64,000 nt of DNA from a virus (taxonomy: Duplodnaviria; Heunggongvirae; Uroviricota; Caudoviricetes): IMG/VR virus record IMGVR_UViG_3300037400_001691, positions 1 through 64,000 of that record; one strand, written 5' to 3'. The first letter of the stretch is position 1; every line of letters starts with the position of its first letter. Shown here piece by piece: positions 449 to 51,049 of this stretch. Under the pieces are notes generated by a model. That model worked only from the letters and a program-made list of their open reading frames with translations, was not told the DNA's origin and searched no databases. Made by a program: the position numbers and the translations under genes.

Positions 449-2146
449 ATGAAAAAACTCGAATCTCTTTATCCAACAAAGGCTCCTTCTACCAAAGATA
501 TGAACATCTTTGAGAAGGAGCTTTTTAAGAAGTCAGTACAAACTACTTCTGGTAATGGTAGTGTTAAGTATTCTATCAGCGGTAATGTCTTCTTAGATGA
601 CTATGCTGCAATTTCAAATTATCGTGAACCTAGAGAGTTAGACGATATTTTCTGTACTATGCAGAAACTTTGTAACGAGAATGTTCTTATTGCTCTTCGA
701 CTTACAGCATTTATAAGAATGATTACTCGTGCTCCATTCTTCAAAGATCAAACTCTTGGTGTTCATCGTGGTCAGGGTCTAAAGCATGAATACATTGGAA
801 GAATGTATTTCTTTGCTAAGAATTATCCAAAGATTTTCAAGCGTAACCTTGATGTATTTATCGCGATAGGTTCTTGGAATGATTTGTTTGAAATTCTCAG
901 AACAGATCTTTACTACAATGGTAAGAAGAGAAAGTCAAATTTCTTATTCAAAACTATTATTGATTATATCATTGCAAAAACATATGATAAGAATCAAGTA
1001 GAGTTGATTAAGAAGTATCTTCCACAAATTAAGCCTGCATCTAAGTGCTCAACTATTCGAAATCAGGCAAATAGTATTATCGCTAAGATAATTGCAACAC
1101 GTCTATTCCCTAGTGAGGATAAGAAGACAAGTTATGCAAGTTATCGTAGGTTTAAGAGTTCTGGTACAGCTCATATTTGGGAGCAAAAGATTTCTCAAGG
1201 TAAGTTCAATGAACTTGATTTTTCTCTCATTGCTGGTCGTGCACTTTCAAAACTCATAAACTCTAAGTTCCTAAAGAATCATGATCTTGAGGATGCTTAT
1301 TATGAGTGGATTGCTAAGCAGCCTGTAGCTAAGTTCACAGGATATCCATTTGAATTGTTTGCACCTTTTAATGAAGTGTACTTACAATACAATTATCTGC
1401 AAAACAGTAAGAATTTTAAACCTTATCAAATTGAAACATTAAATAAGCAATTTGAAGGTCTTATTGAAACTGCAAAGAAGGATATGAATCGTGAAACTTC
1501 ATTCATATGTTGTATTGATACTTCTGGTTCAATGACAGTACAAGCTAATGGTTTGAAAGTTTCTTCACTTACTGTTGCTCGTTCAATGGCTCTTTATTTT
1601 AGTAAACTCCTTATAGGTAAGTTTGCTAATACCTTCCTAGAGTTTGATAGACAGTGTAATTTCAATGTTTGGCAAGGACAAACTGCATATGAAAATTGGG
1701 TACAAACTCCAATCTCTGGATGGTGTAGAGATACTAATTTCATGAGTGTTGCAAACAAGTTTGTTGAACTCAAGCAGAAAGGATATGATGAATCTGAGTT
1801 TCCAACAGGAATAATTTGTATTTCAGATGGTGAATTTAATAGATATTCACATGATAAATCTGTATTTGAATCATTCTTGAATGCTCTTCGTCCTTGGTTC
1901 TCAAAAGAATTTGTTGATAATTTCAAACTTGTTCTTTGGGATTGTCCTAATGGTTGTTACGGTGAAGGAGTTAGACCTAAGTTCGAAAGTCTTGCTGATC
2001 GTCCAAACTTTTATTATATGTCTGGACTTGATCCTGCTGGAATTGCTTTCCTAACAGGTACTAAGTATTCACCTTCTATTCCTAAGACAGCTGAAGAACT
2101 CTTTGAAGCTGCTCTTGATCAAGAACTAATCAAAGCAATTAAGTAA
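449..2146 (+). CDS. vWA-domain protein, Ro60/TROVE-like (Rsr-like) candidate
   Basis: The protein is about 565 aa. A MIDAS-type motif (CC)IDTSGSM at about aa 360 is followed by vWA-like sequence, and size and domain order match Ro60 (toroid plus C-terminal vWA). The probable start is ATG 449, in frame directly after the upstream stop; the ORF track's 392 start overlaps the previous gene. Confidence 0.45.
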   Translation: MKKLESLYPTKAPSTKDMNIFEKELFKKSVQTTSGNGSVKYSISGNVFLDDYAAISNYREPRELDDIFCTMQKLCNENVLIALRLTAFIRMITRAPFFKDQTLGVHRGQGLKHEYIGRMYFFAKNYPKIFKRNLDVFIAIGSWNDLFEILRTDLYYNGKKRKSNFLFKTIIDYIIAKTYDKNQVELIKKYLPQIKPASKCSTIRNQANSIIAKIIATRLFPSEDKKTSYASYRRFKSSGTAHIWEQKISQGKFNELDFSLIAGRALSKLINSKFLKNHDLEDAYYEWIAKQPVAKFTGYPFELFAPFNEVYLQYNYLQNSKNFKPYQIETLNKQFEGLIETAKKDMNRETSFICCIDTSGSMTVQANGLKVSSLTVARSMALYFSKLLIGKFANTFLEFDRQCNFNVWQGQTAYENWVQTPISGWCRDTNFMSVANKFVELKQKGYDESEFPTGIICISDGEFNRYSHDKSVFESFLNALRPWFSKEFVDNFKLVLWDCPNGCYGEGVRPKFESLADRPNFYYMSGLDPAGIAFLTGTKYSPSIPKTAEELFEAALDQELIKAIK

Positions 2147-2149
2147 ATT

Positions 2150-2419
2150 ATGATAACAGCAGAAGAAGCAAAGAAAGCTTCAAATGAAGCTTTAGAAAAA
2201 AGAGAAAAACAAGAATTTGATGACATTCTTAACAAGTTCAAAGTAGAAGAAACAGTAAATAGTGCTATAAATTCAGGTCTTTATAGAGCTTATTTACAGG
2301 GTGTTAGCAATAAAGAGTTGGAAATTCTACGTAAATATCTCATGAACAAAGGTTTTCTTGTTGATAGGTCGCTTTCAACAAACGATGTTTACATAGATTG
2401 GAGCACTAGCAAAAAATAA
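2150..2419 (+). CDS. hypothetical protein (89 aa)
   Basis: ORF with ATG start 4 nt after the upstream stop. No recognisable motif. Confidence 0.55.
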   Translation: MITAEEAKKASNEALEKREKQEFDDILNKFKVEETVNSAINSGLYRAYLQGVSNKELEILRKYLMNKGFLVDRSLSTNDVYIDWSTSKK

Positions 2420-2465
2420 AAAAATTTTAAAAATTTTTTGAAATTTGAAAATTCTATAATATATT

Positions 2466-2502
2466 TGTACACATTCGCTTCAAAAAAAGTAAATGTGTAC
2501 AA
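2466..2502. promoter_or_regulatory. perfect 11-bp inverted repeat TTGTACACATT/AATGTGTACAA with 15-nt spacer, just downstream of a TATAAT hexamer (2453-2458)
   Basis: Read directly in the sequence. It lies immediately 5' of the tRNA-like gene at 2558. Confidence 0.3.
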
Positions 2503-2557
2503 AATATTGGGTTCATAGTTCAATGGTTAGAACAATTGATTAAAATTTATCATATTA

Positions 2558-2643
2558 GGGTGGTTGGCCGAGTGGACGATGGCAATAAACTGTTAATCTA
2601 TCTAGTGAAAGCTACACCGTGGGTTCGAATCCCTCACTGCCCG
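2558..2643 (+). tRNA. atypical class-II-like tRNA (long variable arm, acceptor GGGTGGT/ACTGCCC with 2 G-U pairs); anticodon loop CTGTTAA reads GUU
   Basis: Hand fold: Ser-like D-arm GCC-GAGTGGACGAT-GGC, anticodon stem ATAAA/TCTAT (one A-C mismatch), variable hairpin TAG-TGAAAG-CTA, T-arm GTGGG-TTCGAAT-CCCTC. Confidence 0.4.
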
Positions 2644-2648
2644 CTAAT

Positions 2649-2963
2649 ATGGCATAGAAAGAAATTCGTTATTGTGAAAAACATGGAAATACTGAGTTTG
2701 CTTTGTATAAAACTGGAAAAGATAGCACTAGATGGAGATGTCTAAAGTGCTAGACTGAAGCAACTTAGAAAAGAAGAGATAAAGTGAAATATATGGCAGT
2801 TGTTTATAAAGGAGGTAAATGTCAATGTTGTGGATACAATAAATATATAGGAGCTTTAGAATTTCACCATGTAGATCCAGAACAAAAAGATTTTGGAGTA
2901 TCATCATAGGGATATACCCATTCTTGGGATAAAGCTAAGAAAGATTTCGATGATAAATTTTAA
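2649..2963 (+). CDS. HNH homing endonuclease (C-terminally truncated) with four in-frame TAG codons
   Basis: Frame-0 translation reads ...YCEKHGNTEF...RWRCLKC*TEAT*KRRD...YKGGKCQCCGYNKYIGALEFHHVDPEQKDFGVSS*GYTHSWDKAKKDF. This is a classic Zn-finger plus HNH motif. The TAGs are at 2655, 2751, 2766 and 2907. There is no TAA or TGA inside and no frameshift. Confidence 0.6.
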
Positions 2964-3016
2964 CCTATTAATATCAGTTCGATTCTGTTTGGGCCCGCTA
3001 CTATAAAAATAATATC

Positions 3017-3769
3017 ATGAATACACTCGTTCATCATTTTGCAGGAATGAAATTAAGAGCACAACAATTTGTAAAATATTTTTACGATAATGTTGTTAAT
3101 GCTAAAATAAATTCAGATAATTTGACAGATTTTAATAATAATGTTACTTTAGTTTACGGATCAACAAATAATTATCCGTTTTCTCAAACATTACTTAAAT
3201 ATATAACTGAAAATAATATAAATTCTATAAATATATATGAGAATATTAATCAAGCTTTAAATATTGAGAAAATATCATATTTTAAAAAAGTTCTTGACGA
3301 AAAGTATGATTTATTAAACGATTATATATTATTTATAGATGCTGGAGATACAGTATTAAATATAGATATTTCTTTTAATGAAATTCTTGAAAGATTTAAA
3401 AGTTATAATTGTAATGTTTTATTTAATAAAGATATTACTGATTATCCTTTTAGTTTTAAAAAATATTTTAATCCGAAATCTCCAAGTTATATCAAAGAAT
3501 ATTTTGAAACTCCAAATGTTGAACAATTAAGTGATATAAAAAATGGACATTTTATAAATTCTGGTGTTTATTTTGGTAAAAAAGAAGACATTAAAGAATT
3601 AATAGATGTTTGTTTTAAAATTATAATAACTGATAACAATCCAAGATATTATTCTGATCAATTCATTTTTAAAAAGGCTGCAAAGTTTATTAATGAAAAA
3701 TATAATAAACATTTTGTAGAAGTTGATTATGAGAATAAATTATTTTCTTGTGTAAATTTTAATAAATGA
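3017..3769 (+). CDS. hypothetical protein, extremely AT-rich (possible nucleotide-sugar transferase-like, DAGD motif)
   Basis: 250-aa ORF with very low GC relative to its surroundings. No confident motif. Confidence 0.5.
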   Translation: MNTLVHHFAGMKLRAQQFVKYFYDNVVNAKINSDNLTDFNNNVTLVYGSTNNYPFSQTLLKYITENNINSINIYENINQALNIEKISYFKKVLDEKYDLLNDYILFIDAGDTVLNIDISFNEILERFKSYNCNVLFNKDITDYPFSFKKYFNPKSPSYIKEYFETPNVEQLSDIKNGHFINSGVYFGKKEDIKELIDVCFKIIITDNNPRYYSDQFIFKKAAKFINEKYNKHFVEVDYENKLFSCVNFNK

Positions 3770-4035
3770 AAAAATTACTAATTTTACTAATAATGATGCT
3801 TAGTATTGGTATATTCGGTAATGTAAATCATCAAGCAACTTATTCTGGAAAACACGTTGAAATATATAAAAAATCTAATAACAAGTTAATTTTTGAAACC
3901 GATTCAGCTAAAAAAGCTTATACCAATAAAGACACAATCATTGTAAAAATGATTAACGGAAAGATTAAAAAATATTATCCTGAAAGTGAATATATATTTA
4001 AGTATTCAATTTCAAGTGTAAGATATTACGAATGA
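3766..4035 (+). CDS. small secreted/lipoprotein-like protein
   Basis: N-terminal hydrophobic signal MKKLLILLIMMLSIGIFG. Start overlaps the previous stop (ATGA). Confidence 0.5.
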   Translation: MKKLLILLIMMLSIGIFGNVNHQATYSGKHVEIYKKSNNKLIFETDSAKKAYTNKDTIIVKMINGKIKKYYPESEYIFKYSISSVRYYE

Positions 4036-4055
4036 CATAGATACAACATATAAAA

Positions 4056-4144
4056 GGAATACATACAGCAAATGTTTTTGGTTAATAAATAATACTGATT
4101 ATATTGTTTTAAGTGGTTCAAATCCATTACTTTTTTGTATTCCG
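4056..4144 (+). ncRNA. IR-flanked structured element (GGAATACA...TGTATTCC) with ACAGCAA motif and a T-arm-like hairpin; degenerate Y-RNA/tRNA-like unit U1
   Basis: The 8-bp terminal inverted repeat encloses 73 nt that contain AGTGG-TTCAAAT-CCATT. No acceptor pairing was found. Confidence 0.35.
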
Positions 4145-4149
4145 AATTT

Positions 4150-4222
4150 GCATCGTTGGTGTTAGTGATTAGCATATTGGACTTCCACTCCAAAGGCGAG
4201 AGTTTGAATCTCTTACGATGCT
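4150..4222 (+). tRNA. tRNA-Gly(UCC)
   Basis: Acceptor GCATCGT/ACGATGC 7/7. Anticodon stem TTGGA/TCCAA with loop CTTCCAC. T-arm GAGAG-TTTGAAT-CTCTT. Confidence 0.65.
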
Positions 4223-4281
4223 CTCGAATCCCCATTAGTCCCTGAATTTTTAATTCAAACTAGTGGGTATTGTTATCTTAA

Positions 4282-4357
4282 GGAGGTATAGCGTAGGTGG
4301 TTGTTGCGCGTGGGTCTGAAAAACCCAAGGCTTGTGGTTCAACTCCCAATGCCTCCA
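4282..4357 (+). tRNA. tRNA-Phe(GAA)
   Basis: Acceptor GGAGGTA/TGCCTCC. D-arm GCGT...GCGC. Anticodon stem TGGGT/ACCCA with loop CTGAAAA. The T-stem is imperfect. Confidence 0.55.
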
Positions 4358-4380
4358 CTAATTTTTAAAATTATATTATT

Positions 4381-4563
4381 ATGAGTTTCGATAAAGCAAT
4401 AGAATCTGGTAAAGAACATCGTAAGCAATTTAAAGGAGCAAAGTCTGTTTCTTATAGTTGTAGAAATCATGGTGAATGTCCGTGGTGTAGAAGTAACAGA
4501 TTGTATGGTAATAGAAAAAGAGAAATAAGATCTTTAATGGAAATTAGAGATTTTCTGTCATAG
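4381..4563 (+). CDS. small Cys-rich zinc-ribbon protein (60 aa)
   Basis: Contains SCRNHGECPWCRSN. The ORF ends with TAG immediately followed by TAA. Confidence 0.5.
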   Translation: MSFDKAIESGKEHRKQFKGAKSVSYSCRNHGECPWCRSNRLYGNRKREIRSLMEIRDFLS

Positions 4564-4574
4564 TAAAGAATAAA

Positions 4575-4753
4575 GAAAGCGTACAGCAAATTTTTATATT
4601 TTACCATTAAATTTATAATCCGAAATGTTGTGCAATTCATATAAAAGACTGATTGAATTGTGTTTTATACTCGTATAGAAGTTAAGCTATACTAAGGTGT
4701 GAGTCACTGATTTAGAAGAATAAAAGTTAAATTAAACTTATATTTCGCTTTCT
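4575..4753 (+). ncRNA. IR-flanked structured element U2 (AGAAAGCG...CGCTTTCT) with ACAGCAAA motif, 179 nt, several internal hairpins
   Basis: The terminal 8-bp inverted repeat is preceded by the same leader motif as U1 and U3-U6. Internal hairpins include CAATTCA/TGAATTG and GTATAG/CTATAC. Confidence 0.35.
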
Positions 4754-4759
4754 GTAAAC

Positions 4760-4830
4760 AGGTCCTTAGTTTAACGGTAAAACATTAGTCTCCAAAACTA
4801 AAGTTATTGGTTCGATTCCATTAGGGTCTG
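4760..4830 (+). tRNA. tRNA-Trp(CCA)
   Basis: Acceptor AGGTCCT/AGGGTCT with 2 G-U pairs. D-arm GTTT-AACGGTA-AAAC. Anticodon stem TTAGT/ACTAA with loop CTCCAAA. T-loop TTCGATT. Confidence 0.6.
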
Positions 4831-5136
4831 CTAAAAAATGTTAAACTATTTTGTTTTCATAATAAAGATATGTATATTTGAAGTGTTAATTAGGAACACA
4901 TACAACAAAATTAATTCATTACTCTGCGTTTTAGAGTTCATTGTGTTCCGTTATTTTAATTATTGATTATGGCTTATAAAAAAGATACAAGACAAAGAGT
5001 AAAAGTACTCAATTGTGACATTCCTTATCTTAAAGGAATGGTTGGTCGAGTAGAAAAAGTAAATGGGGATATTTACAATGTAATGGTAGGACCGATTGTT
5101 ATAGCATTACATAAAAGTAAAATTCAAATATTAAAT

Positions 5137-5208
5137 TGAGGTATAGTATAACGGTTAGTACAGTAAACTGATAATTTACAAACCTAAGTTCAACTCTTAG
5201 TACTTCAA
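5137..5208 (+). tRNA. tRNA-Ile(GAU)
   Basis: Acceptor TGAGGTA/TACTTCA. D-arm GTAT-AACGGTTA-GTAC. Anticodon stem GTAAA/TTTAC with loop CTGATAA. T-arm CTAAG-TTCAACT-CTTAG. Confidence 0.6.
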
Positions 5209-5216
5209 CTAATATC

Positions 5217-5285
5217 GCGGATGCAGTGTGATGGTCGCATTTAAGGCTCATAACCTTAAGGAGTAGTTCGATTCTAACATTCGCA
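5217..5285 (+). tRNA. tRNA-Met-like (CAU) with truncated/imperfect T-stem (possible pseudo-tRNA)
   Basis: Acceptor GCGGATG/CATTCGC. Anticodon stem TAAGG/CCTTA with loop CTCATAA. The T-loop TTCGATT has only a 3-bp stem. Confidence 0.4.
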
Positions 5286-5306
5286 ACTTATCTTCATGTT
5301 TTTTAA

Positions 5307-5421
5307 AGGAAACTTCAGCAAACAATTCTCCCACAGAATGTCGTTAGTTCGAATCTAACTCCCTCTGATAGAGGGATAGCTCAATTGGTTCAGAGCGTCT
5401 GTTTTATAAAAAATGTTTCCT
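5307..5421 (+). ncRNA. permuted tRNA-like element U3 (Y-RNA/YrlA-like): 3' tRNA half then 5' tRNA half, enclosed by IR AGGAAAC/GTTTCCT
   Basis: At 5333-5367 lie ACAGA-ATGTC-GTTAG-TTCGAAT-CTAAC-TCCCTCT-G. After the linker AT, 5370-5402 hold AGAGGGA-TA-GCTC-AATTGGTTCA-GAGC-G-TCTGT. The acceptor pairs 7/7 and the anticodon stem 5/5 between the halves. The leader contains CAGCAAA. Confidence 0.6.
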
Positions 5422-5427
5422 GTTTAA

Positions 5428-5545
5428 AGAAAACTAACAGCAATATTTAAATCCGTATCCTGGTGGTAACATGGGTTCGATTCCCTTCTCTACTGTAACA
5501 GGTAGTGTCGTCTAGTGGTAGGACGCCTTTTTTGAATAGTTTTCT
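5428..5545 (+). ncRNA. permuted tRNA-like element U4 (Y-RNA/YrlA-like), IR AGAAAACTA/TAGTTTTCT
   Basis: Leader ACAGCAA, then T-arm ATGGG-TTCGATT-CCCTT, then an acceptor-like hairpin CTCTACTG-TAA-CAGGTAG, then a Glu-like D-arm TCGTCTAGTGGTAGGAC. The inverted-repeat arms show compensatory changes relative to U5 and U6. Confidence 0.55.
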
Positions 5546-5552
5546 GTAATAT

Positions 5553-5636
5553 CGCGGTATAGTCTAATGGTAAGATGCGAGGCTCATAACCTTGAGACAG
5601 TAAATGCTTGTGTGGGTTCGATTCCCACTACCGCAA
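5553..5636 (+). tRNA. atypical tRNA, anticodon CAU, C1-A72 mismatch, 17-nt variable region
   Basis: Acceptor CGCGGTA/TACCGCA. D-arm GTCT-AATGGTA-AGAT. Anticodon stem CGAGG/CCTTG with loop CTCATAA. T-arm GTGGG-TTCGATT-CCCAC. Confidence 0.45.
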
Positions 5637-5725
5637 GGACACATAATCAAAACCTCCACGTGGTGTGTCTGGGTAATGCTAATTTGATTATAATTTGTTT
5701 AATTTAATTTATTTAGAATTGAATC

Positions 5726-6376
5726 ATGGCTTATATTTATTGTATTACAAATTTAATTAATGGAAAATAGTATGTAGGTAAAACTACATATTCTATTACA
5801 AAAAGATTTAAAGAACATTGCAGAGATTGTTCAAAAGAATGTGAAGAAAAAAGACCTTTATATGCTGCTATGAATAAATACGGTATAGAAAATTTTGTTG
5901 CAAAAGAACTTATAGAATGTGAAATAGATGAACTTAGTTCTTATGAAATTATGTTTATAGAAAAACTTCAAACATATGGAAAAAATGGATATAATGCAAC
6001 AAAAGGAGGTGATGGTTCTATATTATTTGATTATAATGAAATAGTTAATTTATATAAACAAGGAAAATCTATGACAGAAGTAGCTAGTATAATACATTGT
6101 TGTATTGATACTGTTTCTAAAGTAGTTCATTTATATAATTTACCTATAAATAAAATTATATCAGGTAGTTGTAAACAACCAAAAATTGTAATACAATTAA
6201 ATAAAGAAACAAAAGAAGAAATACAAATTTTTAATTCAGTTGCAGACGCTTCTCATTGGTTAGTTGATAATGGATATGCTAAAACATATAACGGAGGTGT
6301 TAGACAAAAAATTTGTAATTGTTGTAATGGAAAATCAAAATCAGCTTATAATTTTAAATGGAAATATAAGGAATAA
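5726..6376 (+). CDS. GIY-YIG homing endonuclease (free-standing) with one in-frame TAG
   Basis: Translation MAYIYCITNLINGK*YVGKTTYSITKRFKEHCRD...AAMNKYGIENF... carries the GIY-YIG motif with a TAG at 5768-5770. The ORF is otherwise intact through to TAA at 6374-6376. Confidence 0.7.
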
Positions 6377-6394
6377 TTCCCACTACCGCAATAT

Positions 6395-6466
6395 GGGGCA
6401 TTAGTGTAGAGGTCAGCACGTCAGATTTTCATTCTGGAGACTCGAGTTCGAATCTCGGATGCCCTA
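6395..6466 (+). tRNA. tRNA-Glu(UUC)
   Basis: Acceptor GGGGCAT/ATGCCCT. D-arm GTGT-AGAGGTCA-GCAC. Anticodon stem TCAGA/TCTGG with loop TTTTCAT. T-arm TCGAG-TTCGAAT-CTCGG. Confidence 0.6.
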
Positions 6467-6588
6467 CAAAGGTTCTTGCTTTTTCATCCTATAACGAAAA
6501 AGCCGTAGCAATTCGTCAATGCCGTAGGAATCCGTTAACTCCAATAAACTAGTTTGTGTAACTACACTCTTTGAGTGCAGTTCTTTTT

Positions 6589-6659
6589 GAGTGCTTGTCC
6601 GAGCGGTTAGGTAACGCTCTGTAAAAGCGAATACATTGGTTCAAATCCAATAGCACTCT
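6589..6659 (+). tRNA. tRNA-Tyr(GUA), short class-I form
   Basis: Acceptor GAGTGCT/AGCACTC 7/7. Anticodon stem CGCT/AGCG with loop CTGTAAA. T-arm ATTGG-TTCAAAT-CCAAT. Confidence 0.5.
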
Positions 6660-6805
6660 CAACCTCAGCTGACAAGAGCTAGATCTTGTTGACTTTTAAA
6701 TTCCGGGGCAACATGAAACGGAATAGGTTGGCTTACCTTAAAAAAGTACACGCATCAAAGATGTAAGAGATCCTACTCAGTGAGGTTTTAGAGTAGGATT
6801 TACTT

Positions 6806-6888
6806 GCCGGAATGGGACAGCGGTCGACTCCACTTGATTTGTAATCATGCTCTGAAAAGACACGTCGGTTCGAATCCGACTTCCGGCT
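6806..6888 (+). tRNA. class-II-like tRNA (83 nt, long variable arm), anticodon loop TTTGTAA reads UGU
   Basis: Acceptor GCCGGAA/TTCCGGC 7/7. D-stem GGA/TCC with an 11-nt loop. Anticodon stem CTTGA/TCATG with one mismatch. Variable hairpin. T-arm GTCGG-TTCGAAT-CCGAC. Confidence 0.45.
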
Positions 6889-6909
6889 CAAACAATTAAT
6901 TTTAATAGT

Positions 6910-7458
6910 ATGGTAGATAATAACAAAATCATTCATTTGTTTATTACAAACAAATGTACACATAATTGTAAAAATTATTGTAATAAACAGTATGACATTG
7001 ACAAAATTTCTGTAATTACTGTAGATGAATTAAAATATGCAGATACAGTTTTACTAACAGGTGGTGAACCATTTATGTTAGTTGATTATCTTGAGGATTT
7101 TGCTAAGATGTTAAAGCATGGTTTCACAAATATTAAACAACTTTATGTTTATACTTATGGAGATTCTCTTTATAAATATTTACAGAAGGGTAAAACACTT
7201 GATGTATTTGATGGAGTAAATATAGCTCCTAAAAATAAATATGATGCAGAATGTACTAATAGCATTCTTAAATATAGAAAAGATGATATACTTTCTTTAG
7301 CATCAAGTCGTTTATATATCTTCCCAGAAATGAACGATTATATTCCTACTTACGATTTATATGGATATAGTAATTTTGAAGTTATTCATAGAAAATGGCA
7401 AGAGGAATTTGTACCAGATTCTGGAATATTTAGAAGACTTCCTATTTTATTTGAATAA
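6910..7458 (+). CDS. radical-SAM-like protein (CX3CX3C variant plus GGEP motif)
   Basis: Contains NKCTHNCKNYC and LLTGGEPF. Confidence 0.45.
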   Translation: MVDNNKIIHLFITNKCTHNCKNYCNKQYDIDKISVITVDELKYADTVLLTGGEPFMLVDYLEDFAKMLKHGFTNIKQLYVYTYGDSLYKYLQKGKTLDVFDGVNIAPKNKYDAECTNSILKYRKDDILSLASSRLYIFPEMNDYIPTYDLYGYSNFEVIHRKWQEEFVPDSGIFRRLPILFE

Positions 7459-7553
7459 GTGTTCATATTTGTATAATTAAAGGTTACATATAGCAAACTT
7501 ATTATCAGCAACAAACTTGTAATTTGTCACGCTTTACCTTGTAACCTGTATTT

Positions 7554-7626
7554 GTGACCTTAGCTCAGATGGTAGAGCTACGGATTTTTAATCCATCGGG
7601 CATGGGTTCAAGTCCCATAGGTCACA
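7554..7626 (+). tRNA. tRNA-Lys(UUU)
   Basis: Acceptor GTGACCT/AGGTCAC 7/7. D-arm GCTC-AGATGGTA-GAGC. Anticodon loop TTTTTAA. T-arm ATGGG-TTCAAGT-CCCAT. Confidence 0.65.
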
Positions 7627-7644
7627 CATTAAAACTATTAAAAT

Positions 7645-8685
7645 ATGAGTGAAAAGAATTGGACGTGTAAATATGCACATCATGGAAGACGTAATGGTGA
7701 AGGATTCCCACGTCATGCACTAAAGGATTTTGATGGTACTCATATTAGTATGGGTATGTTACGTTCTTATAAATCCAAATATTCTTGGGATTATCGAAAT
7801 TATCCAGCAATTACAAATAAGTATATTGTAGGTTTATTAGATAAATATGTTGGTAAATCTTATGATGATTTTAAACTTGCTTTTGATCAAAGGACTAAAA
7901 ATCTTTATAAGAAATATCCTATAGAATGGGGTAAGATTTCTGATTACTTACTTGATAAGCCACAAGAATATTATCGTCGTATTACATTTTATCTTGACAA
8001 AAACAATATAATTAGAAGATGCAAGAAATTAAAATATAGAACTTGGAAACTTCCAACTCTTAGTAAAACTCAAAAACATTTTAATGAAAGAGTTAAACTT
8101 CCAGAATGGGGACAAGTAAGAACTGATTCTCGATTTGACGTTGATCATGATTCTTTTTCTACTATGCCTGATAAGTTTAAAGAACCTTTATTACTTGGAA
8201 CATTTTATGTTATTGTAAATGATAAGATTTGTAAACTTCCTGTTTATACTTGTAATAAAGAAATATTTAAAACATATTCAACTTATCGTGATGAAAAATG
8301 GGATAGTAAAAAGAGACGTTATATTAAAACTCCATTTTGGAAATCAGATGCTTGGAATTGTAAACTTATAAATCCTGCTAAAAGAAAGAAAATAGCAGAA
8401 CAATGGATTCCTGTTGATGTTTACACATTACCAAAATTAAAACATGATTTTTGGTGTGAAGCTAAACATAAAGACAGATATAATCTGGAAGAACGTATTG
8501 AAAATCTTAATAATAAAATCAATATAACATTAAATTTTGATATTAGATTGGAATTAATTGGTGATAGAAATAAATTAATTCACCAACTTAATGAACTTCC
8601 AGAAACTGCTTGTTACAATCTTGGATATGGTCGATATTATCCATTTGTAAAAGTATCTGATTACGAAAAGTTTTGTAAAAAATAA
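7645..8685 (+). CDS. hypothetical protein (346 aa)
   Basis: Long ORF with no recognisable motif. Confidence 0.6.
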   Translation: MSEKNWTCKYAHHGRRNGEGFPRHALKDFDGTHISMGMLRSYKSKYSWDYRNYPAITNKYIVGLLDKYVGKSYDDFKLAFDQRTKNLYKKYPIEWGKISDYLLDKPQEYYRRITFYLDKNNIIRRCKKLKYRTWKLPTLSKTQKHFNERVKLPEWGQVRTDSRFDVDHDSFSTMPDKFKEPLLLGTFYVIVNDKICKLPVYTCNKEIFKTYSTYRDEKWDSKKRRYIKTPFWKSDAWNCKLINPAKRKKIAEQWIPVDVYTLPKLKHDFWCEAKHKDRYNLEERIENLNNKINITLNFDIRLELIGDRNKLIHQLNELPETACYNLGYGRYYPFVKVSDYEKFCKK

Positions 8686-8699
8686 TTTTAAGTGTTTAA

Positions 8700-8816
8700 A
8701 GAATACTAACAGCAACTTAATTAGCACTTGTAATGCCGTGTCGGAGGTTCGATTCCTCCTCTTACTTTTAATTGAGAAAGATAGTTTAGTGGCAAAACAC
8801 GTAATTATAGTATTCT
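8700..8816 (+). ncRNA. permuted tRNA-like element U5 (Y-RNA/YrlA-like), IR AGAATACTA/TAGTATTCT
   Basis: After the IR comes the ACAGCAAC bulge, then a second helix TTAATTA/TAATTA. The T-arm is GGAGG-TTCGATT-CCTCC. The 3' acceptor-like strand TCTTACT pairs 6/7 with the downstream AGAAAGA. A D-arm GTTT-AGTGGCA-AAAC follows. Confidence 0.55.
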
Positions 8817-8835
8817 GTTTTTAAAATTAATAAAA

Positions 8836-9030
8836 ATGAAAAAAGTAATTTTTTGGATTATTGTGAAAAATTGTATTATAGTTGTACTTGTTGCAATTAT
8901 TATTGGTTTAATGGTATATTATAATCATATGCGTGAGGAATATCAAAAGAAAGAAAATACATTAATAATGATGTATAATTCTAAATGTAATCACGCTCAA
9001 ATTGATTACAAACTATTAAGAAGTTATTAA
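8836..9030 (+). CDS. small membrane protein (1 TM)
   Basis: Hydrophobic segment IIVVLVAIIIGLMVYY. Confidence 0.45.
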   Translation: MKKVIFWIIVKNCIIVVLVAIIIGLMVYYNHMREEYQKKENTLIMMYNSKCNHAQIDYKLLRSY

Positions 9031-9032
9031 TA

Positions 9033-9206
9033 TGAAAAGTAATTTTGACGGATTATTAGCAATGATTATAATTGCTACAGCTTGTGTTTTAGTTACAATG
9101 AGTATTTTTTATAATAATATTGAGCAACGTATCGAAACACTTCAACAACAAAATGATTCTCTTAAACAAGAAATTGTTTTATTAAATAATTATTTATATG
9201 ATTAAA
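9033..9206 (+). CDS. small membrane/coiled-coil protein (57 aa)
   Basis: ORF MKSNFDGLLAMIIIATACVLVTMSIFYNN... with an ATG start. Confidence 0.4.
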
Positions 9207-9407
9207 TATGTTAAACCTGAAATACAATTAATAATATCAGATTCTGAAGATTTGATGATTAGTTCACAAGAACATTTACCAGATATTCAATCTGATGTTC
9301 ACGAATGTTGTCCTGCTTGTGATCCAAATGGTTATTGGCATTGCGATCATTCTAGAGCATGGGGTAACAAAGGATCACAATATGGAAAATGTGATAGATG
9401 TAATTAA
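9198..9407 (+). CDS. small Cys/His-rich protein
   Basis: Contains CCPACDPNGYWHCDH...CDRCN. Confidence 0.45.
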   Translation: MIKYVKPEIQLIISDSEDLMISSQEHLPDIQSDVHECCPACDPNGYWHCDHSRAWGNKGSQYGKCDRCN

Positions 9408-9411
9408 CATG

Positions 9412-9485
9412 GTGTCGTTAACTTAATTGGCTAAAGGCGGTGACTGTGAATCACTGAGATATCGGTTCGAATCCGTTGCGATACT
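9412..9485 (+). tRNA. tRNA-His(GUG)
   Basis: Acceptor GTGTCGT/GCGATAC with 2 G-U pairs, and a G at -1. Anticodon stem GGTGA/TCACT with loop CTGTGAA. T-loop TTCGAAT. Confidence 0.55.
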
Positions 9486-9503
9486 ACATCATATGTATTG
9501 TAA

Positions 9504-9643
9504 AGAATACTAACAGCAAAATTATTTAAAAACTGTTTTCTCCGTTGTGCGAAAGGCGCGTATAGGTTCGAATCCTATCATTAGGTAATTACTCCTAATG
9601 TGGTGGAATTGGTAGACACGATGGATTGTTTTAATAGTATTCT
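9504..9643 (+). ncRNA. permuted tRNA-like element U6 (Y-RNA/YrlA-like), IR AGAATACTA/TAGTATTCT
   Basis: Leader ACAGCAAA and a second helix TTTAAAAAC/GTTTTAA. T-arm TATAGG-TTCGAAT-CCTATC. Acceptor-like hairpin ATTAGG-TAATTACT-CCTAAT. D-arm GTG-GAATTGGTAGA-CAC. Confidence 0.55.
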
Positions 9644-9798
9644 GTTTTTGGAGGGTTGACAGAGTGATTTATTGCACCAGACTACTAATCTGGCAGTCGT
9701 CATTTTACAGGTTTACTTTGGCCATTTTTAGTAGTTATATTCCTACTTTGGCTTTGGGGTAAGTTTTGTACAAAAATTTCTAAAAAGATTTTGAAACA

Positions 9799-10124: not shown

Positions 10125-10691
10125 ATGAGTTATTATCATTATTTTAAATTAAAGGATGAAAGTAAATATCAGAAAGAAGATGCTTTAAGAGAACTTAAGT
10201 TTAAATATACATCTTCAGATAAAGATAAAATTCTATTAAAAGTAAGTATGATTAAAGCTTATTATGAAAATAAGATTGAAAATAATTATACTGATATTTT
10301 TTGTAGAGTTAAACTCTTAGCATCTGATATAGAAAAAAATTGTCTTCTTTCTTTAGTAAAAGAGATTAAAGAAAAAGGAGAAATAGAGAGAAATAGACCT
10401 CACGATGAATATGAAATGGAACAAATAGTAAATTCTTATGATGAAGATATAAATAGAATTATTGAAAATCTTCTTATATTATCTACTATTAGATTTGTTC
10501 CAGATAATGAATATTCAGACACTCCTAAAACGGAAATGGATTATTTGAGATATGAATATATTACTCAAATTAATTACGAATTAGAAACGTTAGAAGATAC
10601 AGTTCTCGATTACACTTTTTCTAAATTTGTATTAGAAGAATGTAATAGAGAAACAGAATCTGAAAGGAGTTCATCAGAAGACTTAGAATAA
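10125..10691 (+). CDS. hypothetical acidic protein (188 aa)
   Basis: ORF with no recognisable motif. Confidence 0.55.
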   Translation: MSYYHYFKLKDESKYQKEDALRELKFKYTSSDKDKILLKVSMIKAYYENKIENNYTDIFCRVKLLASDIEKNCLLSLVKEIKEKGEIERNRPHDEYEMEQIVNSYDEDINRIIENLLILSTIRFVPDNEYSDTPKTEMDYLRYEYITQINYELETLEDTVLDYTFSKFVLEECNRETESERSSSEDLE

Positions 10692-10705
10692 GTCTTCTGT
10701 AAATT

Positions 10706-12319: not shown

Positions 12320-12394
12320 AAGACGCATGATGACCAAGTGGCTATGGTGACAGGTAACGTTCCCAACGATGGTTCGAATCCATCCTTGCGTCTT
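12320..12394 (+). ncRNA. tRNA-like element: 8-bp terminal stem AAGACGCA/TGCGTCTT, D-arm-like CCA-AGTGGCTA-TGG and canonical T-arm GATGG-TTCGAAT-CCATC, but no canonical anticodon arm
   Basis: Hand fold. Confidence 0.35.
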
Positions 12395-12954
12395 AATTTG
12401 GGGGTATTTGGATTTGATTGCTAAGAGAAGCAAAGAAATCACGCAAAGGCAGTTGGAAAGACAACAAATAAAATTTAAACGGAAATAACACAGTTACATT
12501 CCGTATCGCTGCTTAATTGAATTAGATTAAGTACGATACCCGGGAAACACAGGATACTTACCGAGGAACAGAAATAGTATTCATCGCTGGCATCGGCAGT
12601 AATTAAACGAGCAAAAGTTTTATTAGTTTTCACAAAACTAATTGGTGGAGCTAACATTCAGTTAGCCTAAAGAAGAAAACTTTTAAAAATTGAAAAGCGT
12701 GTACAAATTTCGATGATATTTTAGTAAGACGAGGGTTTAATAGTTGGACCAGCTATAAAGTGATTTATAGTTAAAAACATCGGATGAATTCAGGGAACGC
12801 TAAAAAATAAAGCTCAAGATAAGCTTTATTTCATGCTAATCCTGAGCTAAACATAGAGTACACTCTATGAAAGTGCAACGACTATTGGAGAACTACAGTG
12901 TTCTTAATTACCAACTTGAGCGTCCGACATCTCATTAAGAGATGATGATATAGT

Positions 12955-13518
12955 CTAATCTTCTATGAAAGTAGAAGTATAGGAAGAAATCTGTTTTAAA
13001 AATTTTTTAGTTTCTAAATCAGACATTTGTTGTTTCATTAAATTAATAGGAGTTGATACAAATTGAACATTACCTTTTATGTAACCTTTAGATGAATCAA
13101 TTCTATCTAAAGATGCTCGATAAATTATATTTAAATCATTTATATTATTATCTTCTGGTAATGTTAATTTAAGATTAGTATAAGGACATATTCCATTTTG
13201 TTGTTCCCATATTAATTTTAAATATTCTAAATCTATATTTATTTCTTTAGATCTACGTTTTATACATCTCATTGTATATCTAAAAGGACTAAATTCATCT
13301 CTTCTATTTCCAGAATGTTGTGAAATATCATATTTATCATTTGATAATGATAAATTTTTATTAGATTTTCCAGAACAAATTCTAGAACAATAATTTTTTC
13401 TTCCTAATTTAACATTTCTATTATATTCGGAAAGTGGTTTTTGAAATTCTTTACCACAACAATCACAAATTAATGTGATTAATTTTCGATTTTTACAATA
13501 ATCTTTTAAAATTTCCAT
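12955..13518 (-). CDS. HNH homing endonuclease (Zn-finger N-terminus, SLDRIDSSKGYIKGNVQFV HNH motif)
   Basis: Minus-strand ORF of 187 aa with CxxC pairs and the HNH signature. Confidence 0.65.
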   Translation of the reverse strand: MEILKDYCKNRKLITLICDCCGKEFQKPLSEYNRNVKLGRKNYCSRICSGKSNKNLSLSNDKYDISQHSGNRRDEFSPFRYTMRCIKRRSKEINIDLEYLKLIWEQQNGICPYTNLKLTLPEDNNINDLNIIYRASLDRIDSSKGYIKGNVQFVSTPINLMKQQMSDLETKKFLKQISSYTSTFIED

Positions 13519-15649: not shown

Positions 15650-16642
15650 ATGTTCAGAAAATATTCTCATATTCAAAATTCTTATCAAACTTCATATATT
15701 GAAAGAGTAAGAGAGTGGACAAATAAAGACACAAAATTTGTCGCACAAGAAAAAGTTGATGGAACTAATTTTCAATTCTTTATAAATCGTAATAAAGAAT
15801 CTAAAGAATTTGAAATTAATTGTGGTAAGCGTTCATCAGAAATTGCTCCTAATGAAAGTTTCTTTAATTATAAAGAACTTCTTGCTCAAATGACTCCTAA
15901 ACTTGAAGATCTTTATGACATAATGAGTTATTATCATTATGATATAAGTAAAGGTATCATTGTTTATGGAGAATATTTTGGTAAAGGTATTCAGTCAAGA
16001 ATATTTTATACAGAAAATCAAGATTTTTATGGATTTGATATTTATCTTCCATCTATAGGAGAAATTATAAATCCTATTGAAGTTATGGATTTATTTGATA
16101 GTGCTAAAATATTTCATGCTGAAAATCTTCATATTGGAACTCTTGATGAAATGCTTGCACTTGATGTAACATTTTTATCAACAATTCCAGAGCGTTTAGG
16201 TTATAAAAATCCTGAAAACAATTATGCTGAAGGATATGTTATTAAACCTGTAGATGCTCCTTATTTTGCTCCAAATGGAGATAGAATTATTATTAAACAT
16301 AAGAATTCTAAATTCATTGAAATTGGACAACATAAGAAAGAAAAGAAAGTAATTGAGCCAGGTAATCCTCTTAAGTATAGAGAACTTCTTGATGCTGTAA
16401 ATAATTATTTTACAGTAGCTCGTCTTGAGAATTGTAAATCACATCTTGGTGATATAGAACTTCCAAATGATTTTGGTAAGTTACTTAAGGAACTTTGTTG
16501 TGATGTACTTAATGAGTTCTTAGAAGATGAAAATTATAAAGCAATTTATAATTCATTAGAAAAGAACGATCAAAAGATGCTTAAGACTGAAATTAATAAG
16601 AAGTCAGTGGCTCTTATTAAAGAAACTTACATGAATGGATAA
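15650..16642 (+). CDS. rnlB: RNA ligase 2 (T4 Rnl2-like, ATP-dependent)
   Basis: The N-terminus MFRKYSHIQNSYQTSYIE...FVAQEKVDGTNFQFFI matches T4 Rnl2 MFKKYSSLENHYNSKFIE...WVAREKIHGTNFSLII, including the KxDGxN lysine-adenylation motif. Downstream, VYGEYFGKGIQ and IIKHKNSKF also match, and the size is 330 aa. Confidence 0.85.
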   Translation: MFRKYSHIQNSYQTSYIERVREWTNKDTKFVAQEKVDGTNFQFFINRNKESKEFEINCGKRSSEIAPNESFFNYKELLAQMTPKLEDLYDIMSYYHYDISKGIIVYGEYFGKGIQSRIFYTENQDFYGFDIYLPSIGEIINPIEVMDLFDSAKIFHAENLHIGTLDEMLALDVTFLSTIPERLGYKNPENNYAEGYVIKPVDAPYFAPNGDRIIIKHKNSKFIEIGQHKKEKKVIEPGNPLKYRELLDAVNNYFTVARLENCKSHLGDIELPNDFGKLLKELCCDVLNEFLEDENYKAIYNSLEKNDQKMLKTEINKKSVALIKETYMNG

Positions 16643-24805: not shown

Positions 24806-25961
24806 TTCCAAAATAAAATTTTTGTTTGAAATTTTGAAACTTGTTAAATTAGTTATATTATTAATTTAACAGTTAAAATTATGGATATAGAAAAATTGGC
24901 ATTTGAATTTCAAACAACTAGTATTTCTCTTACTAAATTAGCAGAAAGAGAACATACAGCAAGACAAACTCTTGCAAAAAAATTTAAAGAATTAGGTATT
25001 GAGATAATTAATAAACAAAATAAAACTAAATTTAATGAACATATCTTTGATTCTATAGATACAGAGAAAAAAGCATACTGGTTAGGTTTTATTTTTGCTG
25101 ATGGAAGTATTAGAGAACAAATTGAAGGTAAAAAAGTTCCTTATACTTTTGAATTAAGTTTAAAAGGAGATGATATAGAACATCTTAAAAAATTTAATTC
25201 ATTTATGGAATATCAAGGAGATAATGTTAAATTAGGAAAAAGTAAATGCAAAAATAAAGAGTTTTCTAGATGTAGATGGACTATTACAAATAAACATTTA
25301 TGGACTATTCTTAACAATTTAGGTTGCACATCTAATAAATCTTTAACATTACAATTTCCTAATGAATCAATATTTAGTTCAAAAGATTTAATTCCACACT
25401 TTATTAAAGGTTATTTTGATGGTGATGGATGTTTTACACGTCATGTATATACACATATTGTTAGTCCTGTTATTTCTATATTAGGAACTCCAGAATTTTT
25501 AGATAAAATTGACGAATATTCTAATATAGAATCTATAAGACGACATGACAAAAGACATTCTGAAAAAACTTATATTTTAGAATTTAATAAAGAAAATGGA
25601 ATTAAATTTATTAATTATATTTATTCTAATTGTAATATATATTTAGATAGGAAATATAAATTATATAATTTTTTTAAAAACGGAAGCCGTTCTGTAGAGG
25701 AATTTACAGAATTACAATCGGGCAATATCGGGGAAAAGCTGAAGCTTGAGTCGAGAGACTATATGTATGAAAATCCCGAGATAAACTTAGAAACTAAAGA
25801 ATCTGAGTCATCGTACAGCGTAGGAGGTGAAACTGTATAACAGACTATAATCCTTCCAAGAGTGTCCGATACCCCAACTGAAATAAGTGGGTAAAAAGGT
25901 ACGCGGGGCTTACTTGTAATAAGTAAGAAATACGAATAAAAAATCGTATGATAACAATCCG
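24806..25961 (+). mobile_element. group I intron in helicase gene, carrying LAGLIDADG endonuclease ORF
   Basis: The exon ends in U and the intron ends in G. The in-frame read-through hits a stop. The host Walker A motif is split precisely. The 3' core shares blocks with the dut intron. Confidence 0.65.
24881..25840 (+). CDS. LAGLIDADG homing endonuclease (intron-encoded)
   Basis: Two LAGLIDADG motifs: YWLGFIFADGSI and KGYFDGDGCF. Confidence 0.75.
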   Translation: MDIEKLAFEFQTTSISLTKLAEREHTARQTLAKKFKELGIEIINKQNKTKFNEHIFDSIDTEKKAYWLGFIFADGSIREQIEGKKVPYTFELSLKGDDIEHLKKFNSFMEYQGDNVKLGKSKCKNKEFSRCRWTITNKHLWTILNNLGCTSNKSLTLQFPNESIFSSKDLIPHFIKGYFDGDGCFTRHVYTHIVSPVISILGTPEFLDKIDEYSNIESIRRHDKRHSEKTYILEFNKENGIKFINYIYSNCNIYLDRKYKLYNFFKNGSRSVEEFTELQSGNIGEKLKLESRDYMYENPEINLETKESESSYSVGGETV

Positions 25962-50825: not shown

Positions 50826-51049
50826 AAAGTTTCCAAGTTGTTTACACAGAAGAAAGTGAATTAACACGTACCTTTGTTTATAGAGTACAAGCTGAATCTG
50901 CTGAGGAAGCAGAAGAAAAAGTAAGACACTCTGGATATCAAGACACTGATGATGTTGAATGTATTGACTCTTACGATGATGAAGCACTTCTTACTAGTTA
51001 TATAGATCCTGAATGTACTGAACTAATCGAGGAAGAAGACGAAGACTAA
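50822..51049 (+). CDS. hypothetical acidic protein (75 aa)
   Basis: ORF. Confidence 0.45.
   Translation: MKSFQVVYTEESELTRTFVYRVQAESAEEAEEKVRHSGYQDTDDVECIDSYDDEALLTSYIDPECTELIEEEDED

Follow-up and report, generated by a model that had tools for sequence, protein, structure and literature searches.

The DNA analysed here (the window) is a stretch of 64,000 nucleotides (nt), positions 1 to 64,000 of the IMG/VR record IMGVR_UViG_3300037400_001691, from a virus of the Caudoviricetes. Near its start a gene for a protein with the predicted fold of Ro60 (positions 449-2146) stands at the head of a tRNA array, and eight small elements, each consisting of a constant part that we call the handle and a variable part that we call the payload, lie on the same strand within the array. 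We consider it likely that this region specifies a phage ribonucleoprotein system of the Ro60/Y-RNA kind, put together from divergent parts. The evidence lies in the predicted fold of the protein, in a covarying helix accompanied by an invariant motif, in tRNA-like payloads, and in the strand-matched linkage of RNA elements and protein gene across distant phages. Defining features of TROVE proteins and of YrlA RNAs were looked for and not found; the system is therefore best described as a divergent relative and is placed in neither family.

The protein encoded at 449-2146

The gene at the head of the array was read as follows:

449-2146, + strand: Ro60-fold protein (predicted) of 565 amino acids; N-terminal helical-repeat ring (DUF2828 in homologues) and C-terminal vWA domain with a metal-ion-dependent adhesion site (MIDAS; DUF7788 / Ro60-type vWA)

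The start was set at 449, and not at the first ATG (392), because the homologues are 565 amino acids long and the upstream open reading frame (ORF) ends at 447. The first-pass annotation had taken the product for a Ro60/TROVE protein; the Ro60 part of that proposal stands, but the TROVE part does not. PHROG 850 ('RNA-binding protein') is matched over the full length (E 6e-31). The window protein falls just under the Pfam cut-offs (DUF7788, 25.5 bits versus 27.1; DUF2828, 15.3 versus 29), which homologues at 44-55% identity clear: 42 of 42 match DUF7788 (PF25043) and 40 of 42 match DUF2828 (PF11443), while PF25045, the 'Ro60 vWA domain', is matched by 23 of the 42 in a per-member scan. There are more than 1300 homologues, chiefly on metagenomic phage contigs of 100-200 kb, with PF11443 plus PF25043 and often PF25045. 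Judged by its sequence, the protein belongs to the uncharacterised DUF2828/DUF7788 family; no functional description of DUF2828 was found in the searchable literature. TROVE (PF05731) gave no match with the window protein at E<=0.01, nor with the 42 homologues at E<=1. A single-protein sequence search of the PDB found nothing; with the family profile against PDB sequences, Ro60 ranks first, with a weak E of 0.08 and over the MIDAS stretch alone.

The MIDAS motif, already noticed in the first reading, is complete, and D357, S359, S361, T429 and D460 are invariant in the homologue alignment. An AlphaFold2 model computed from this alignment (pLDDT 85.8, pTM 0.83) has a helical-repeat ring followed by a vWA domain with MIDAS, as in Ro60. 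When the model was compared with the PDB by Foldseek, the top 8 chains were all Ro60/Rsr (about 575 columns aligned, E 4e-7 to 2e-5), and the best whole-length superpositions were with Ro60 from Xenopus, a Thermus phage and Deinococcus. According to this model, the protein is Ro60-like by fold and, although not a TROVE member by sequence, it is not a generic vWA protein either. In Ro60, Y RNAs are held at the outside of the ring and the ends of misfolded RNAs in its central hole.

The RNA elements of the window

Six elements had been listed in the first reading, and all were found again within one base (4056-4143, 4574-4753, 5307-5421, 5428-5545, 8700-8816 and 9504-9643), but their number had been underestimated. 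A scan for an ACAGCAA-like motif placed after a segment whose reverse complement occurs downstream recovers the six plus another at 4893-4949, and comparison with L001, a close relative (related loci are given L numbers), revealed an eighth copy at 7481-7547. To these comes a bare helix at 10676-10699. Element coordinates run to the end of the helix; in the list below the flanking G that follows adds 1 nt. The labels U1 to U6 are those of the first listing, and the tRNA genes given are those that follow an element at a fixed 6-7 nt (called by ARAGORN and Rfam).

4056-4144, + strand: element 1 (U1); arms GGAAUACA (4056-4063) and UGUAUUCC (4136-4143), ACAGCAA 4065-4071, G 4144
4150-4223, + strand: tRNA-Gly
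4574-4754, + strand: element 2 (U2); arms AGAAAGCG (4574-4581) and CGCUUUCU (4746-4753), ACAGCAA 4583-4589
4760-4831, + strand: tRNA-Trp
4893-4950, + strand: element 3; arms GGAACACA (4893-4900) and UGUGUUCC (4942-4949), variant ACAACAA 4902-4908, simple hairpin payload
5307-5422, + strand: element 4 (U3); arms AGGAAAC (5307-5313) and GUUUCCU (5415-5421), UCAGCAA 5315-5321
5428-5546, + strand: element 5 (U4); arms AGAAAACUA (5428-5436) and UAGUUUUCU (5537-5545), ACAGCAA 5437-5443
5552-5637, + strand: tRNA-Met
7481-7548, + strand: element 6; arms AGGUUACA (7481-7488) and UGUAACCU (7540-7547), mutated AUAGCAA 7490-7496
7554-7627, + strand: tRNA-Lys
8700-8817, + strand: element 7 (U5); arms AGAAUACUA (8700-8708) and UAGUAUUCU (8808-8816), ACAGCAA 8709-8715, permuted tRNA-like payload
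9504-9644, + strand: element 8 (U6); arms AGAAUACUA (9504-9512) and UAGUAUUCU (9635-9643), ACAGCAA 9513-9519
10676-10700, + strand: bare handle helix; AGAAGACUU and AAGUCUUCU, 9 base pairs (bp), 5-nt loop, then G; read directly from the sequence, 20.6 bits and E 0.035 with the covariance model R1 described below

Elements 1, 2, 5 and 6 end 6 nt before tRNA-Gly (4150), tRNA-Trp (4760), tRNA-Met (5552) and tRNA-Lys (7554), respectively; element 4 ends 6 nt before element 5, and element 8 ends 6 nt before a truncated tRNA-Ser-like remnant. The payload of element 1 contains a T-arm-like hairpin, that of element 2 (about 155 nt) is unclassified, and the L001 orthologue of element 3 (9124-9211) has ACAGCAA. 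The bare helix retains the ends of the handle (AGA...UCU), without ACAGCAA or payload, and stands 6 nt before tRNA-Val (10706); it could be a relic or else a minimal form, and an ORF at 10125-10691 ends within it. The tRNA-Ser(ACU)-like remnant (9650-9712, + strand) can be aligned with an intact tRNA-Ser of L003 over its acceptor 5′ strand, its D-arm and its anticodon arm; it lacks the T-arm and the 3′ acceptor strand, and ARAGORN and Rfam make no call.

A covariance model (R1) built solely from short elements of loci other than the window gave its best window match at 7477-7553 (element 6; 49.5 bits, E 4e-9), followed by 4052-4149 (element 1; 34.2 bits, E 2e-5) and 4889-4955 (element 3; 32.5 bits, E 5e-5). 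R1 copes poorly with long payloads, just these three window elements being found at E<=1e-4, and we therefore relied on the motif-plus-pairing scan with its opposite-strand and swapped-arm controls. At curated thresholds, the Rfam hits in the window and 13 related loci are limited to tRNAs, transfer-messenger RNA (tmRNA), a group I intron and a hammerhead, and the elements are covered by no family. Rfam 15 lacks a model for the handle RNA family, and the searchable literature yielded no description of it.

The handle is a covarying RNA helix

The layout of the handle is common to the window and the related loci, which together form the sample of 1.43 Mb used for the statistics. The consensus begins with an A and the 5′ arm of an 8-bp helix (starting with RGA and ending with UCY); then come 0-1 base, ACAGCAA, A or U, and 25-155 nt of payload. 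An A-rich stretch leads to the 3′ arm, which is followed by a nearly invariant G. The shared layout of terminal arms followed by ACAGCAA on the 5′ strand, as first described, was confirmed (UCAGCAA in element 4). In the six window elements listed first (U1 to U6) the arms are of 7-9 bp, and their sequences vary between copies with complementarity kept. By contrast, the 'second helix' reported for U3, U5 and U6 is not a feature of the family: ACAGCAA has no pairing partner in the A-rich 3′ strand that precedes the helix.

The motif is found 681 times on the gene strand versus 96 on the opposite strand, and canonical elements 327 times versus once. For every ACAGCAA of the gene strand, the exact reverse complement of its own upstream 7-mer was sought within 245 nt. 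Such a partner is present for 359 of the 518 unique occurrences, with 134 distinct arms, as compared to a mean of 10.9 and a maximum of 19 when arms were swapped (200 trials) and to 1 out of 97 on the opposite strand. Among 119 distinct handles, two-sided changes are seen at 9 of 9 helix positions, and the covariation score is 0.863, while shuffled partners score 0.217 and slid ones 0.10-0.16. The outer 7 pairs were chosen by pairing, but pair 8 is independent of that selection, and it is paired in 66% of the handles; a ninth pair is at background, and the helix is therefore one of eight pairs. Covariation of the arms, and with it an RNA helix rather than a DNA site, had been proposed from the window copies; these numbers bear it out.

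Terminal inverted repeats that recur many times in a genome, here in a region with numerous homing endonucleases, could also be DNA-level repeats, i.e. miniature transposable elements, target duplications of homing endonucleases or recombination sites. A transposase or nuclease site would keep its sequence, but the arms are distinct yet complementary, with two-sided changes at all helix positions, and the conserved motif is asymmetric and confined to one strand, in elements oriented 327 to 1. Since the arms vary with pairing kept, the motif is asymmetric and the orientation fixed, the object under selection is an RNA and not a DNA repeat, an explanation that we hold to be extremely improbable in view of the helix covariation.

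In many phages, strictly tandem elements are separated by the 4-nt spacer GAUA (…UCU-GAUA-AGR…), for instance at L087 6923-7274 and at IMG/VR loci such as L275 8996-9305 and L282 1149-1413. The spacer suggests a defined cleavage site between tandem units.

Payloads and tRNA mimicry

A T-loop is present in about a quarter of the unique elements, and about half of the family is without any tRNA-like payload. In the window, a tRNA-like domain in permuted order (T-arm, acceptor-like hairpin, D-arm) occurs in four of the eight elements (4, 5, 7 and 8, i.e. U3-U6) and is absent from the short ones. This order had been proposed for these same four, and the automated checks support it to different extents. 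Element 4 aligns with the whole Rfam YrlA model (RF02553), including T-arm, acceptor-like hairpin and D-arm (38.8 bits, E 2e-7 locally, threshold 69), and an arm parser also recognises in it the T-arm, a 7-bp acceptor-like hairpin and the D-arm. Element 8, whose payload comprises an extra arm, a 5-bp T-arm, a 7-bp acceptor-like hairpin and a D-arm, is supported by ARAGORN and by the parser. Element 7 is supported by ARAGORN; the parser found its T-arm and acceptor-like hairpin but not the D-arm. For element 5, ARAGORN gave no gene on the self-duplicated sequence and the parser no T-arm, and the tRNA-like domain is attributed on the basis of its L001 orthologue and of our reading of the sequence. 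Its alignment with YrlA is partial (14.3 bits), and the other window elements give nothing with this model.

The ARAGORN results come from a permutation test in which long elements were duplicated head to tail and searched with introns allowed. A tRNA across the junction was reported for 20 of the 48 elements, including elements 7 and 8 and the L001 orthologue of element 5. The predicted 'anticodons' are arbitrary and differ between orthologues, and the 'introns' measure 29-52 nt. With the arm parser, a T-arm, an abutting hairpin and then a D-arm were found in 30 of 53 elements, among them elements 4 and 8 and the copies of Felix O1 and of the Enterococcus phage. The acceptor-like hairpins, often of exactly 7 bp, directly adjoin the T-stem and vary in sequence from copy to copy; their loops measure 3 to 39 nt and show no conserved cleavage context.

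A minority of payloads keep the normal order (D-arm, hairpin, T-arm), without acceptor stem or real anticodon loop. Such tRNA bodies, with the handle replacing the acceptor stem, were seen at L006 16203-16334, L018 13270-13391, L027 15415-15533 and L076 7781-7895; the Rfam tRNA model matches L006 16260-16315 at model positions 8-63, and the 'anticodon' hairpin of L027 is closed by a UUCG tetraloop. Other payloads look like anticodon arms. CUUUUAA, the anticodon loop of tRNA-Lys(UUU), is the most frequent 7-nt hairpin loop among 452 unique elements, carried by 32 of them on 9 different stems (T-loops are found in 52 elements); CUUGUAA and CUCUUAA are also seen, and further mimics have loops with CUU, UGU or CGU at the anticodon position. 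Element 6 of the window (7481-7547) falls in this class: its hairpin, CAAA-CUUGUAA-UUUG, resembles an anticodon arm, and the loop of its L001 counterpart, CUUUUAA, is that of tRNA-Lys.

Circularly permuted tRNA genes are known from the red alga Cyanidioschyzon. As in the long elements, their 3′ half, with the T-arm and the acceptor 3′ strand, comes before the 5′ half, with the acceptor 5′ strand and the D-arm. One could imagine that the long elements are genes of this type, which would yield functional tRNAs once the ends had been joined at the terminal helix by circularisation or splicing and the acceptor loop had been opened; the matching order of the parts, the junction tRNAs reported by ARAGORN and the acceptor-like stems of exactly 7 bp would fit. 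What speaks against it is the anticodon arm, of which there is no consistent trace, with no conserved anticodon stem between handle and core and with the arbitrary 'anticodons' mentioned above. Moreover, the acceptor stem is closed by a loop that varies in length and lacks a conserved cleavage context, the same handle is found on payloads unrelated to tRNA (about half of the family), and in some normal-order payloads a tetraloop takes the place of the anticodon loop. Lastly, the handle is presumably not a bulge-helix-bulge motif, if we go by its sequence and by what is generally known of the red-algal genes. Permuted tRNA genes appear very improbable to us.

Linkage of the RNA elements with the protein

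Strict elements are present on the strand of the protein gene in 89 of the 93 loci with a gene for this protein (median 5, maximum 11 per locus), the four element-less loci being truncated or having short flanks. A tblastn search of GenBank phages with the protein returned 371 records, and in each of the six cultured phages that were examined the handle is found beside the gene:

Leptolyngbya phage Lbo-JY46: five tandem copies right after the gene; protein identity 40%
Felix O1: four copies among the first tRNAs, one with a permuted tRNA-like payload; the homologue is ORF42, about 20-24% identity
Listeria WIL-1: three copies; about 20-24% identity
Campylobacter CP30A: two copies; about 20-24% identity
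Bacillus Tsamsa: three copies; about 20-24% identity
Enterococcus PEf771: three copies; about 20-24% identity

Despite the low identity of the proteins, ACAGCAA is unchanged in these phages. Downstream of the gene, Listeria WIL-1 has HD, RtcB, NADAR, RNA ligase and phosphoesterase genes. When IMG/VR was searched by motif first, with a pattern of two abutting handles (CTGATAAG, seven free bases, ACAGCAA), 29 loci with the helix were obtained (loci <=15 kb), and in 24 of them the same strand also encodes the protein; a control pattern in the wrong register (8 free bases) gave 2 out of 120. The tRNA region of phage T5 (25 annotated tRNA genes examined) contains neither a DUF2828 gene nor a handle. 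T5 does encode RNA1, RNA2 and RNA3 ('tRNA-like stable RNA'), which, like the elements described here, are non-tRNA, partly tRNA-like and interleaved on the same strand with phage tRNA genes, but in a region without handle or DUF2828 gene the resemblance is one of placement only.

Placement of the elements relative to tRNAs and to the gene

In L002-L005, L087 and L089-L092, elements lie immediately beside the Ro-fold gene; in the window they lie within the adjoining array, dispersed between tRNAs up to 7.4 kb past the end of the gene. In four cultured phages, elements are found directly 5′ of the gene on the same strand. One might then take them for leaders that regulate in cis, for instance autoregulatory sites of the Ro-like mRNA, or for self-cleaving ribozymes that free neighbouring RNAs. 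Ribozymes are common around phage tRNAs, and a weak match to a hepatitis delta virus (HDV)-like ribozyme is seen in the window after tRNA-Met (5636-5691, + strand; Rfam HDV-F-prausnitzii, 24.5 bits versus a threshold of 44). It begins at the 3′ end of this tRNA, which is the expected site of HDV-like ribozymes that trim the 3′ ends of phage tRNAs. The dispersal of the copies over the array is at odds with a leader, and about a dozen conserved nucleotides, with no Rfam ribozyme model matching the elements, at odds with a ribozyme; we judge either role quite improbable.

The main rival explanation comes from the distance between elements and tRNAs. In the phage clade of the window, a tRNA starts 5-8 nt (mode 6) past the end of 137 of 327 elements (42%), and element 4 is 6 nt away from element 5. 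This fixed spacing suggests, as far as sequence can tell, that the elements are co-transcribed with the tRNAs and that their 3′ ends are set by RNase P. The handle could then punctuate the polycistronic tRNA precursor or mark it for processing, and a host RNase or another phage factor would read it to set cleavage sites or protect ends; its link with the gene would mean that both travel with tRNA arrays. The nearly invariant G after the helix, the bare helix that precedes tRNA-Val with the same ends and spacing, and the unrelated hairpins found before tRNA-Thr, tRNA-Ala and tRNA-Tyr in the window all go in this direction. However, the spacing in Felix O1 is 13-15 nt, and Listeria WIL-1, Campylobacter CP30A and the cyanophage have tandem elements that adjoin the Ro-like gene rather than tRNAs. 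In addition, the T5 region examined, with its 25 tRNA genes, does without the handle and without the DUF2828 gene, and a processing signal would have no need for elaborate tRNA-mimic payloads, which are themselves conserved and covarying. A processing signal explains the fixed spacing but not the tandem arrays beside the gene or the elaborate payloads, and we consider it unlikely.

Comparison with known Ro60 systems

YrlA RNAs are encoded beside TROVE genes in bacteria and phages and carry a GNCGAAN0-1G motif, the proposed contact with Ro60 (Chen et al. 2014, PMC4201824); the Ro60 of Thermus phage phiLo binds two adjacent Y-like RNAs, Yrl1 and Yrl2 (PMC12135203). The system described here shares with them a ring-plus-vWA protein encoded beside small RNAs that have an end-to-end helix and a motif on the 5′ strand, an RNA body that mimics tRNA (first the T-arm, then a closed acceptor stem, then the D-arm), and the existence of phage examples and of RNA-repair genes as neighbours. 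It differs in its protein (DUF2828/DUF7788 instead of TROVE) and in the number of RNAs per locus (median 5 and maximum 11, versus one or two). The RNAs are also interleaved with real tRNA genes, and many payloads, such as anticodon-arm look-alikes and plain hairpins, are unlike YrlA. The reading as a Ro/Y-RNA module, put forward in the first-pass annotation, is thus supported in its outline. As to the likeness to Y RNAs and YrlA, the terminal helix, the 5′-strand motif and the tRNA-like domain of four of the eight elements hold; the Rfam score and the YrlA motif do not.

Several points weigh against a Ro60/Y-RNA system, in addition to the spacing before tRNAs and the tRNA-side hairpins discussed in the previous section. 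First, the YrlA threshold (69 bits) was reached by no element of the window or of 13 related loci. Second, the handle carries ACAGCAA where GNCGAAN0-1G / GGUCCGA would be expected; GNCGAAN0-1G is not on the 5′ strand, where ACAGCAA is invariant instead, and the sole CGAA in the elements lies inside the T-loop. Third, as the protein has no TROVE sequence match, the RNA specificity of Ro60 cannot be transferred to it. Fourth, co-occurrence was established mostly on loci selected by the protein, the reciprocal test consisting of the 29 motif-selected loci and one negative-control phage. Fifth, we infer the expression and stability of the RNAs and their binding by the protein from sequence.

A sixth point comes from gp130 of the Felixounavirus Bas63, a protein with a Ro60-like predicted structure that is encoded directly upstream of tRNA genes and counters the Ppl defence (2024 PhageMaP preprint, PMC11482910). 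From its position and published description, it is probably of the same protein family, the counterpart of Felix O1 ORF42, a homologue of the window protein whose gene has that position. Expressed alone, without phage RNAs, gp130 protects T7 from Ppl (PMC11482910); therefore, at least the anti-Ppl activity needs no phage RNAs, or host RNAs substitute for them. The authors named no partner RNA and offered as a guess that there might be Y RNAs among the annotated tRNAs (PMC11482910); in contrast, the handle RNAs are encoded between the tRNAs and are not annotated as tRNA genes.

Neighbouring genes and other features

The array contains 18 tRNA genes, all on the + strand, between 2558 and 14714 (ARAGORN, Rfam). 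Further features in and around it are:

103-447, + strand: phosphoesterase-like ORF (PHROG 547, E 2e-16), ending 2 nt before the Ro-like gene
12728-12977, + strand: group I intron (Rfam, 96 bits)
15650-16642, + strand: Rnl2-type RNA ligase (Pfam RNA_ligase, E 4e-20; T4_Rnl2_C, E 2e-14), just past the tRNA array

The phosphoesterase and the Rnl2 ligase around the array give it an RNA-repair context. The first pairing is found again in L001, where a Metallophos gene (3704-4291) lies immediately upstream of the Ro-like homologue. A megablast search with the first 12 kb found no close relative among GenBank phages. Scanning the array for sigma-70 promoters was uninformative (100 sites versus 86.6 +/- 10 expected). 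The phage encodes a full-length sigma-70 family factor of its own (regions 1.2, 2, 3 and 4; 51049-51969, + strand), and host-type promoter scans may therefore not apply to this genome.

Other observations concern the tRNA array itself. Just before tRNA-Asn, a look-alike of the 5′ third of a tRNA (acceptor strand and D-arm) stands without a partner (2509-2545, + strand; GGGTTCATAGTTCAATGGTTAGAACA). In the 12322-12977 region (+ strand), weak tmRNA-like and permuted-tmRNA-like Rfam hits (15-20 bits) extend as far as the start of the group I intron. Clear tmRNA genes exist in the related loci L004, L005 and L092. An intron-split tmRNA was considered (weak hits at 12337-12734) and rejected, as ARAGORN on about 2000 spliced variants and BLAST with the tmRNAs of related loci found nothing. 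The array also contains a radical-SAM-like small ORF (6910-7458, + strand), which is kept in L001, and an ORF resembling a helix-turn-helix (HTH) homing endonuclease (5870-6376, + strand). LAGLIDADG and GIY-YIG endonuclease ORFs are found elsewhere in the window (24881-25840, 29207-30238 and 52990-53985). The anaerobic ribonucleotide reductase NrdD is encoded by two ORFs about 890 nt apart (39720-40904 and 41796-42716, + strand), matching profile positions 2-265 and 279-560; it seems likely that the gene is split by an intron or intein with a homing endonuclease. Finally, tRNAs with a CUA anticodon (amber suppressors, labelled 'Pyl' by ARAGORN) are present in related phages (L004 2608-2681, - strand; L006 18187-18260, + strand), and L004 has a RAGATH-1 hammerhead (5050-5117). 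The CUA tRNAs and the hammerhead hint at stop-codon recoding in this phage group.

Proposed function and significance

If the region is a Ro60/Y-RNA-like system, it could work as follows. Eight RNAs would be made from the same strand in the tRNA array, each presenting a variable payload on a constant handle, the latter formed by the 8-bp end helix with its conserved outer RGA/UCY pairs, the unpaired 5′ ACAGCAA, the A-rich 3′ strand and the flanking G. They would be transcribed together with the tRNAs and freed by tRNA-processing enzymes, the RNase P cut at the next tRNA leaving a 6-nt tail. The Ro-like protein would dock on the handle. The payloads, be they a permuted tRNA 'elbow' without anticodon arm, an anticodon-arm look-alike or another hairpin, would show tRNA-like surfaces to tRNA-binding enzymes or nucleases, which the particle might tether, gate or decoy during infection. 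The particle would probably serve RNA repair or counter-defence. As to the exact task, one possibility, which we advance tentatively, is that the array is a library of tRNA-part decoys or adaptors on one handle, in which 'elbow' and anticodon-arm mimics are held by the Ro-like ring. Such a particle could intercept, sense or neutralise host defences that target tRNAs (e.g. anticodon nucleases), or recruit Rnl2, RtcB and the phosphoesterase to damaged tRNAs. In that case, DUF2828 proteins and handle RNAs would constitute a widespread RNA-based counter-defence module of phages, Felix O1 included.

The Ro60/Y-RNA particle is conserved but poorly understood, and its bacterial and phage examples have so far come from searches with YrlA models near TROVE genes. 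The system described here would be a second, sequence-divergent branch, in which a large phage family annotated as a 'domain of unknown function' has the Ro60 fold and its own RNA family with a different handle. The pair of handle and protein occurs in phages that are easily grown, such as Felix O1 and its relatives, phages of the Listeria A511/P100 type, and phages of Campylobacter, Enterococcus and Bacillus, so that the partner RNAs of a protein with reported anti-defence activity become directly testable. With one handle bearing many different pieces of tRNA, the family would also offer a natural experiment on the 'effector' modules of Y RNAs, and part of the unannotated space inside phage tRNA arrays would turn out to be genes.

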